The position numbers and the translations under genes were made by a program. Source: Escherichia coli (lineage in GTDB: Bacteria; Pseudomonadota; Gammaproteobacteria; Enterobacterales; Enterobacteriaceae). From it: a DNA stretch of 64,000 bases. The DNA is taken from assembly GCF_044647545.1 (NCBI RefSeq), contig NZ_CP172818.1; one strand, given 5' to 3'. Below, piece after piece: positions 42,150 to 42,312 of this stretch (its first letter is position 1; the number at the start of each line of letters is the position of its first letter). Below the pieces are notes generated by a model. The model ran no database searches and was not told the origin of the DNA. It worked only from the letters and a program-made list of their open reading frames with translations.

Positions 42150-42312
42150 TGGTATCAGTCATTTTACCCGATAGCCGAAAGGAATAAGATGAGGGAACCG
42201 CGCCAGCGGCGATTTACCGCCGGGAACCCGGGTTGCCAGGGTGGTGGCGATTGAGCCACCCTGGCACGTTCACCGGCTTAAGCGTTCCATAGTAGCGAGG
42301 AACATCAAGTGA

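Follow-up and report, generated by a model that had tools for sequence, protein, structure and literature searches.

Among the structured repeats that lie between enterobacterial genes, TRIP1 (Rudd 1999, cited by Li et al. 2024, Genes 15:236, PMC10888264) is a GC-rich unit (62-65% G+C) of 146-273 bp that adopts a 'double-Y' fold. Its function is unknown, and 156 inversions or rearrangements via TRIP1 have been documented in E. coli genomes (PMC10888264). Five TRIP1 loci have been published, namely aqpZ-ybjE, putP-ycdN, yohI-yohG, alx-sstT and copA-ybaP, with types that are 84-94% identical to TRIP1a (PMC10888264). A second described system is the TwoAYGGAY RNA motif (Rfam RF01731; Weinberg et al. 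2010, PMC2864571), which has been proposed to be a CsrA-binding RNA (Gardner & Eldai, PMC4333381). Here we compare with both systems an element situated downstream of yegH in E. coli contig NZ_CP172818.1. All positions are those of a 64-kb window of this contig (the whole stretch of DNA that was analysed), in which wza and then yegH (+) are followed by a 712-bp spacer (42150-42861) and by asmA and dcd (both -). The span flagged in an earlier note, 42150-42312, begins directly after the yegH stop codon (42147-42149) and was said to carry stacked perfect hairpins between that stop and a toxin remnant, a position that is borne out by the start of the higB remnant at ~42361. Probably, a copy of a TRIP1-like repeat has decayed at this site and the hairpins are its second Y, any effect on yegH being a by-product.

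When 77 full-length copies are combined into an nhmmer profile, positions 151-331 of the model match 42166-42345 (E = 2e-45), and the profile finds no second copy of the repeat in the 64 kb. The surviving fragment spans 180 bp with 55.6% G+C, the GC-rich core lying in the deleted part, and its components are the following:

42166..42345, + strand: surviving fragment of the TRIP1-like repeat, the 3' ~55% of the unit (nhmmer profile)

42165..42172, + strand: TACCCGAT octamer, junction of a 178-bp deletion (allele comparison)

42197..42210, + strand: hairpin ACCGC-GCCA-GCGGC, a small helix that the family conserves (alignment A2, helix 1; covariation)

42207..42225, + strand: orphaned 3' strand (CGGCGAUUUACCGCCGGGA) of the closing stem P1, whose partner UCCGGCUGUAAAUCGCCG lies within the deleted segment

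42217..42232, + strand: palindrome ccgccgggaacccggg, made of the end of P1 and the linker (AGCCNGGG in the family) into the second Y (sequence)

42234..42266, + strand: hairpin H, 11 Watson-Crick pairs plus one U-G pair, loop GGCGAUUGA (repeat search, fold, family covariation)

42267..42315, + strand: second arm of the second Y, CGUUCAC at 42267-42273 with GUGAACG at 42309-42315 (fold)

42316..42351, + strand: shortened 3' tail of the element, GAACAGCCTTCGATCTTACATATTCAGAATATAATG (3' tails compared by subfamily)

The perfect hairpin announced past yegH is indeed present. A repeat search returns an inverted repeat at 42234-42244 and 42256-42266, with arms of 11 nt that are 100% complementary and spaced by 11 nt, and the chance expectation for this exact hairpin pattern is 0.01 occurrences in the window. 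The strings first reported, gccagggtgg/ccaccctggc, exist, but they lie at 42235-42244 and 42256-42265 rather than at 42234-42264, the end then given being one base short. Upon RNA folding, as the earlier note had suggested, hairpin H alone (42230-42270) reaches -24.4 kcal/mol (z = -4.0) and none of 200 shuffles is equally stable, while the whole flagged span reaches -59.8 kcal/mol (z = -2.3) and is equalled by 4 of 200 shuffles, a modest gain only. The adjacent palindrome, which had been taken as a further stacked hairpin, is found as a string at 42217-42232 but is unable to form a hairpin of its own, being an overlapping palindrome whose arms CCGGG and CCCGG are separated by only 2 nt; in the window fold it pairs with a downstream GUUC...CCGGC. 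The 3' strand of P1 constitutes the left half of this 'ccgccggg...' palindrome, and GCCGGGAGCC is nearly invariant across 104 aligned copies of the family. Further downstream, the sequence between the two strands of the second arm is variable and contains an inner hairpin, GUUCC/GGAAC (42284-42288/42299-42303). Complete copies of the repeat end in a terminal hairpin, AATGCTT-AACTGAC-AAGCATT(A), which the window copy lacks, and the Escherichia copies at yegH (window, K-12, PapRG-06-5, CFSAN061771 and E. albertii) diverge past 'aatataatg' at 42351. Six-frame translation of 42100-42540 gives no coding remnant in the hairpin region apart from higB.

The assignment to a repeat family is based on the recurrence of the same structure at other loci. 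A sensitive BLAST search with 42172-42358 retrieves ~70-76% identical copies from other parts of the chromosome, as well as from two 'plasmid' records that are chromosome-like. Their sites are unrelated intergenic spacers (proX-ygaY and alx-sstT, and in C. freundii yeiP-torD and rnk-hydrolase), and further copies lie in the lysO-aqpZ, efeU-putP and yohP-dusC spacers. In E. coli, TRIP1-type sequence is found in 5425 of 5426 complete genomes, at a median of 3 places, and is annotated in none. A census of copies with a right-hand-domain pattern that fixes GGCG, ACGTTCAC and GTGAACGNARC, taking one genome per species, yielded at least 120 loci. Once chance matches in unrelated phyla are removed, the matches listed include more than 100 copies, often at contig ends, in ~14 enterobacterial genera: Citrobacter, Escherichia, Pluralibacter, Lelliottia, Enterobacter, Cedecea and Shimwellia, as well as Pseudescherichia, Siccibacter, Trabulsiella, Buttiauxella, Yokenella, Phytobacter and Kosakonia.

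Over the 104 aligned copies, 9 of the 11 pairs of hairpin H have changed on both sides, 99.3% of the cells are paired and 28 distinct stem sequences occur. The small hairpin at 42197-42210 behaves likewise, with compensatory CG<->UA changes at 3 of 3 pairs and 97.4% of cells paired. Covariation of the whole structure amounts to 0.370, versus 0.161 in shuffles (0 of 500 reach the observed value) and 0.03-0.09 when the partners are slid. The register of P1 is kept across the 77 full-length copies, in which 8 + 6 consecutive columns show at least 93% pairing. The CGUUCAC/GUGAACG helix is invariant in alignment A2 only through the search pattern; the second arm is supported independently by the TRIP1 subfamily, which carries GCGCUCC...GGAGCGC there, a compensatory swap of the whole helix. 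The 3' domain of the family is thus strongly covarying and multi-copy in ~14 genera, while it falls outside any Rfam model and is unannotated in RefSeq. As to conservation across strains, the absence of which the earlier note would have taken as refuting its observation, the fragment is 95-99% identical among ~3900 genomes and its stem covaries, a conservation that belongs to the repeat family and not to yegH.

The same alignment indicates which strand folds. Hairpin H contains 31 G-U cells and 2 A-C cells and, because the former outnumber the latter, the folding strand would be the yegH-sense (aligned) strand. This bears on the proposal that the fragment acts as DNA, either because it is prone to form cruciforms or because it recombines homologously with other TRIP1-like copies. 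The 156 rearrangements documented for TRIP1 in E. coli (PMC10888264), the large head-to-head palindromes of Citrobacter and Lelliottia described below and a preference for convergent spacers, as in selfish repeats, are in its favor, but the 31 to 2 ratio argues that a single strand folds, most simply as RNA, and a fragment whose identity to the remaining E. coli copies is just ~70-85% makes a poor recombination substrate, so that a DNA-level role is improbable. With regard to gene context, of 38 single copies (crude open reading frame, ORF, calls) 28 have convergent neighbours, 1 has divergent neighbours and 9 have co-directional ones (5 sense, 4 antisense). Selfish intergenic repeats, such as the repetitive extragenic palindromic (REP) sequences, are tolerated in this same pattern, and the copies show no orientation preference.

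Most copies in Citrobacter and Lelliottia are paired head to head, with two subtypes flanking a conserved AT-rich centre of ~95 bp (L008 2500-3170, L024, L025, L040, L056, L061, L091-L094, L116, L119 and L129). The resulting composite measures ~0.8-0.9 kb and has the terminal hairpins as outer ends; a mobile unit resembling a miniature inverted-repeat transposable element and a divergent gene pair are the alternatives for its nature. The similarity of the Citrobacter centre to a Tn3 inverted repeat was dropped as a coincidence, given that the other copies show no such resemblance. Comparison of empty and filled sites at proX-ygaY and alx-sstT left no boundary readable, as K-12 carries other repeats there, and neither a target-site duplication nor a transposase partner was found at the loci compared. 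Like the yegH-asmA spacer, those two spacers exchange different repeats between strains.

Four of the E. coli copies can be matched, by their neighbouring genes, to published TRIP1a-d: lysO(ybjE)-aqpZ, which is TRIP1a, putP-efeU(ycdN), dusC(yohI) and alx-sstT. A full-length allele of the yegH copy, found in other strains, is 90.6% identical to TRIP1a over 180 aligned columns of the core, and the window fragment is 84.8% identical to the same lysO-aqpZ copy over 92 aligned columns, the likeness dropping in the second arm of the second Y. This full-length allele takes up a double-Y fold (-126.9 kcal/mol, z = -4.9, 0 of 200 shuffles equally stable), in which P1 consists of UCCGGCUGUAAAUCGCC paired with GGCGAUUUACCGCCGGGA and the second Y has hairpin H as its first arm. 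Neither a promoter nor a terminator emerged from scans of the allele. As TRIP1, it is low-copy, intergenic, locus-specific, variably present among strains and a GC-rich double Y, and both TRIP1 and the yegH copy possess hairpin H and the loop GGCGAUUG. They differ in the second arm, which is CGUUCAC/GUGAACG in the yegH copy and GCGCUCC/GGAGCGC in TRIP1, the former being the variant found in other genera, though it is also demanded by the search pattern. Of the double Y, the window fragment retains the second Y only, the first being wholly missing. Judged by its sequence, the feature is a TRIP1-like unit truncated at two places, and its locus is absent from the TRIP1 literature. Neither yegH-asmA nor proX-ygaY is among the five TRIP1 loci, and the TRIP1 study (PMC10888264) mentions neither yegH, Rfam nor CsrA; E. 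coli TRIP1-like units thus extend past the published loci to these two.

The relationship with TwoAYGGAY becomes apparent only in full-length copies. A search of window positions 41900-43000 against Rfam at E <= 1 gave no TwoAYGGAY match, only a chance small nucleolar RNA match, while the sole relevant Rfam match of full-length copies is TwoAYGGAY, always on the yegH-sense strand. The scores, to be read against an Rfam gathering threshold of 43 bits, are:

alx-sstT copy (TRIP1d): 36.6 bits

yegH long allele: 31.5 bits

lysO-aqpZ copy (TRIP1a): 30.6 bits

Pluralibacter gergoviae copy: 46.3 bits, above threshold

Shimwellia copy: 43.2 bits, above threshold

The alignments locate two hairpins with GGA loops (ACAUGGAUGU and ACAGGGAUGU) and the long closing stem P1, in which the Rfam alignment places the 3' strand that survives in the window. 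The first Y of full-length units therefore resembles TwoAYGGAY in having a long P1 and two GGA-loop hairpins (AUGGAU and AGGGAU). On the other hand, the second loop in enterobacterial units is AGGGAU versus the AYGGAY of the motif, and these units add ~150-200 nt of 3' structure and a 5' domain of ~75 nt beyond the 168-position Rfam model. From the window fragment the defining core of TwoAYGGAY is entirely gone, since both hairpins lie within the deleted 178 bp and only the 3' strand of P1 persists. Among the published TRIP1 repeats (TRIP1a, L133 2488-2748; L134, L135 and L010) the TwoAYGGAY-like core scores 30-37 bits, a link absent from the TRIP1 paper. From their sequence, the loops ACAUGGAUGU and ACAGGGAUGU look like candidate CsrA binding sites. 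In the available part of the gene-based table of Potts et al. 2017, ybjE and dusC carry 'No' in four yes/no columns, assumed to be CsrA-binding calls, which neither supports nor excludes such binding. Through its resemblance to TwoAYGGAY, TRIP1, an orphan repeat of E. coli, is tied to an RNA family that is itself an orphan with proposed CsrA binding, an idea that thereby becomes testable in E. coli.

How the fragment arose can be read from the alleles of the yegH-asmA spacer. A megablast of 42100-42900 against the 5426 complete E. coli genomes matched the first ~260 bases in most genomes and the remainder in some only, and the representatives read define at least 6 alleles:

O157:H7 allele: yegH terminator, intact higB-higA and asmA terminator, with no flagged sequence

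Window allele: flagged segment, then higB minus its first ~55 codons

CFSAN061771 allele: like the window, plus 178 bp extra at the left

K-12 allele: flagged segment, then REP

PapRG-06-5 and E. albertii allele: flagged segment with the extra 178 bp, then REP

WP3-W18 allele: REP only

ECONIH2 allele: a further variant with an internal deletion

The spacer is a hot spot in which REP, a TRIP1-like unit of full or truncated length and an intact or truncated higBA module replace one another, alone or in combination. In the sensitive BLAST search, 42172-42358 is contained at >=80% coverage in 3936 genomes, and ~900 genomes give no match whatsoever to the fragment. The full-length allele occurs at the yegH locus in 1425 of the 5426 complete E. 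coli genomes and also in E. albertii. The octamer TACCCGAT is present twice in the long alleles, 178 bp apart (L002 1566/1744 and L004 366/544; in E. albertii, L018 296/472), and the pair encloses the 5' domain together with the TwoAYGGAY-like core; a single TACCCGAT, at 42165, is left in the window. The long allele is taken as the complete form because the extra 178 bp and the flagged segment are contiguous in the copies at other loci, and as ancestral, most simply, because E. albertii has it. The window form is the product of a 178-bp deletion between the two TACCCGAT octamers, with loss of the core. The element is also dispensable for yegH, because some spacer alleles do without it (O157 with its own terminator, WP3 with REP only).

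These comparisons show the following course of events. A full-length unit was present downstream of yegH before the split of E. coli and E. albertii. In the window lineage, the deletion between the TACCCGAT octamers removed the 5' domain and the core with the two GGA hairpins; the 3' terminal hairpin is also lost and the neighbouring higBA truncated. What remains are the 3' strand of P1, seen as the palindrome, hairpin H and the CGUUCAC/GUGAACG helix. The fragment is presumably transcribed as the 3' untranslated region (UTR) of yegH, because it is co-oriented with the gene and lies right after its stop with no terminator between them. In such a transcript, hairpin H might act as a barrier to 3'->5' exonucleases, fixing the steady-state 3' end after Rho-dependent termination downstream, in line with the protection of the 3' ends of Rho-terminated E. 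coli transcripts by U-less stem-loops (Dar & Sorek 2018, PMC6061677). A role as a 3'-end protective or processing stem-loop may be envisaged, and at most the hairpin could protect the 3' end of yegH mRNA incidentally. Its sequence and its shape follow from membership in the repeat family; for relatives of this family, a CsrA-binding RNA (PMC4333381) and a substrate of chromosomal rearrangement (PMC10888264) have been proposed.

Several points weigh against a TRIP1-like origin with an incidental effect on yegH. The E. coli TwoAYGGAY matches (30.6-36.6 bits) stay under the Rfam threshold of 43. The invariance of GGCG, ACGTTCAC and GTGAACGNARC is circular, as it is imposed by the search pattern, the free tests being the stem of H and the small hairpin. 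Copies of the same genome are related, so cell counts exceed the number of independent events. The fragment differs little among E. coli strains, but this does not tell selection from recent ancestry. Finally, no yegH-sense 3' end is seen in the available part of the listing of Adams et al. 2021. The same part contains a Rho termination region at K-12 2139476 on the - strand (~window 42140; score 7.7, p = 1e-18), which is antisense to yegH and falls just inside its end. In K-12, REP replaces the intrinsic terminator of asmA and, because the Rho region lies just inside the yegH end, the asmA transcript would cross the whole spacer antisense to the element.

A different interpretation is that the hairpin is a selected cis-acting element of the yegH 3' end, serving as a protective stem-loop or contributing the structure of a Rho-dependent terminator, and retained for stabilising yegH mRNA after loss of the original terminator. 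Its orientation is that of yegH; it begins 85 nt past the stop with no intrinsic terminator between, and as a stable stem-loop without a U-tract it is of a type known at Rho-dependent 3' ends (PMC6061677). Moreover, the window and K-12 differ at loop and flank positions but show zero substitutions in the stem. Nevertheless, the same hairpin occurs with other stem sequences in more than 100 copies unrelated to yegH among the matches listed, and alleles without it are common, ~900 genomes lacking any match to the fragment. Stem-disrupting substitutions are found in the E. albertii copy L018, at the yegH locus, and in another Escherichia copy, L037, whose locus is not confirmed, their arms being CCAGGGTGG/CCCCCCTGG and CCAGGGGGG/CCACCCTGG, respectively; these mismatches hint at relaxed constraint on hairpin H. 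Selection for yegH is, in view of these data, rather unlikely. Equally, there is only a slim chance that H and the CGUUCAC/GUGAACG arm form an autonomous functional module of a widespread but uncharacterised enterobacterial TRIP1/TwoAYGGAY superfamily, be it a structured RNA or a mobile element. Were this so, the module might be the recognition site of the agent that spreads the repeat, or an RNA-stability or RNA-binding-protein module alongside CsrA-type GGA hairpins, and its retention in ~3900 E. coli genomes after loss of the core would reflect selection and not recent ancestry.

The earlier note had also considered that the structure might be part of an intrinsic terminator of yegH, a REP-like sequence or something resembling an attachment site. 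Intrinsic, Rho-independent termination would be compatible with a GC-rich 11-bp stem directly past the gene, but the stem is followed by CACGUUCACCGG, the lack of a U-tract was rightly recorded from the start, and a terminator scan of 42150-42312 finds no terminator-like site on the + strand. In addition, the O157 allele shows the real yegH terminator without the element (aaatgcgcag...ctgcgcatttgattt), a canonical structure that is lost here, and the proposal is highly improbable.

An attachment-site-like scar, left by the integration or excision of a mobile element that truncated higB, is very unlikely too. The element does adjoin a truncated toxin gene in a spacer that is a hot spot of replacement alleles; however, there is no tRNA or transfer-messenger RNA gene in 39000-46000, no integrase-like ORF in the spacer and no direct-repeat pair, K-12 and E. 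albertii have the same element beside REP and not beside higB, and the family, of which ~70-76% identical relatives occupy many unrelated intergenic spacers, is itself a repeat. A phage search with the fragment gave no match, and its plasmid matches are chromosome-like records.

The REP-like label holds only in the broad sense of a dispersed, structured intergenic repeat. That the hairpin is itself a REP or a bacterial interspersed mosaic element (BIME) is hardly credible, in spite of the convergent-gene spacer, the palindromic structure and the genuine REP that adjoins the same element in K-12. The REP consensus core (GCCKGATGCGRCGY..., an imperfect palindrome of ~35 nt) has no match with <=1 mismatch in 42150-42860, though REP-like cores exist elsewhere in the window; the unit extends over hundreds of bases, and its E. 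coli copies number a median of 3 and not hundreds, so the family is TRIP1-like and TwoAYGGAY-related instead. In this context, Rfam naRNA4 matched only the neighbouring REP in L004. REP/BIME and the enterobacterial repetitive intergenic consensus (ERIC, or intergenic repeat unit, IRU) resemble the present unit as structured enterobacterial intergenic repeats that are mainly tolerated between convergent genes and can stabilise upstream mRNA. Unlike them, the unit is much longer, has a far lower copy number and another architecture, and shares no sequence similarity with them. Another low-copy intergenic repeat of E. coli K-12 is RSA (BEE95), of ~150 bp, a size that resembles the TwoAYGGAY-like core; it is a lead and not a result. 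The correct label for the feature is that of a repeat fragment, with no annotation as a yegH terminator, REP or attachment site.

The remaining features of the neighbourhood are:

40500..42149, + strand: yegH coding sequence, a TerC-family membrane protein (ORF list; RefSeq annotation of K-12 and other homologues)

42361..42531, + strand: C-terminal remnant of a HigB/RelE-family toxin gene (ORF 42349..42531)

42820..42851, - strand: asmA intrinsic terminator, a 13-pair stem followed by a T-run, not serving yegH (terminator scan)

The asmA terminator is the sole convincing terminator that the scan detects in the spacer. The yegH ORF as listed begins at TTG 40500, while the K-12 annotation (1584 bp) implies a start at ~40566, 66 nt downstream, and the longer ORF from TTG 40500 probably does not represent the real start. 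In O157:H7, higBA is intact (a 339-bp toxin and a 291-bp helix-turn-helix antitoxin) and yegH keeps its canonical terminator (L003 425-1043); compared with this arrangement, the element and its flanks stand in place of the yegH terminator, the higBA promoter and ~55 toxin codons. The toxin remnant of the window consequently lacks its promoter and the N-terminal ~55 codons, and its counterpart in CFSAN061771 is labelled 'RelE/ParE family toxin, incomplete, missing N-terminus' in RefSeq. Towards the higA remnant, identity to CFSAN061771 is 98-100% at 42206-42445, falls to 62% at 42680-42794 and returns to 100% at 42833. The differences within 42560-42830 smear bases into homopolymer-like runs, and this divergence resembles the product of low-quality sequence or faulty assembly more than biological change.

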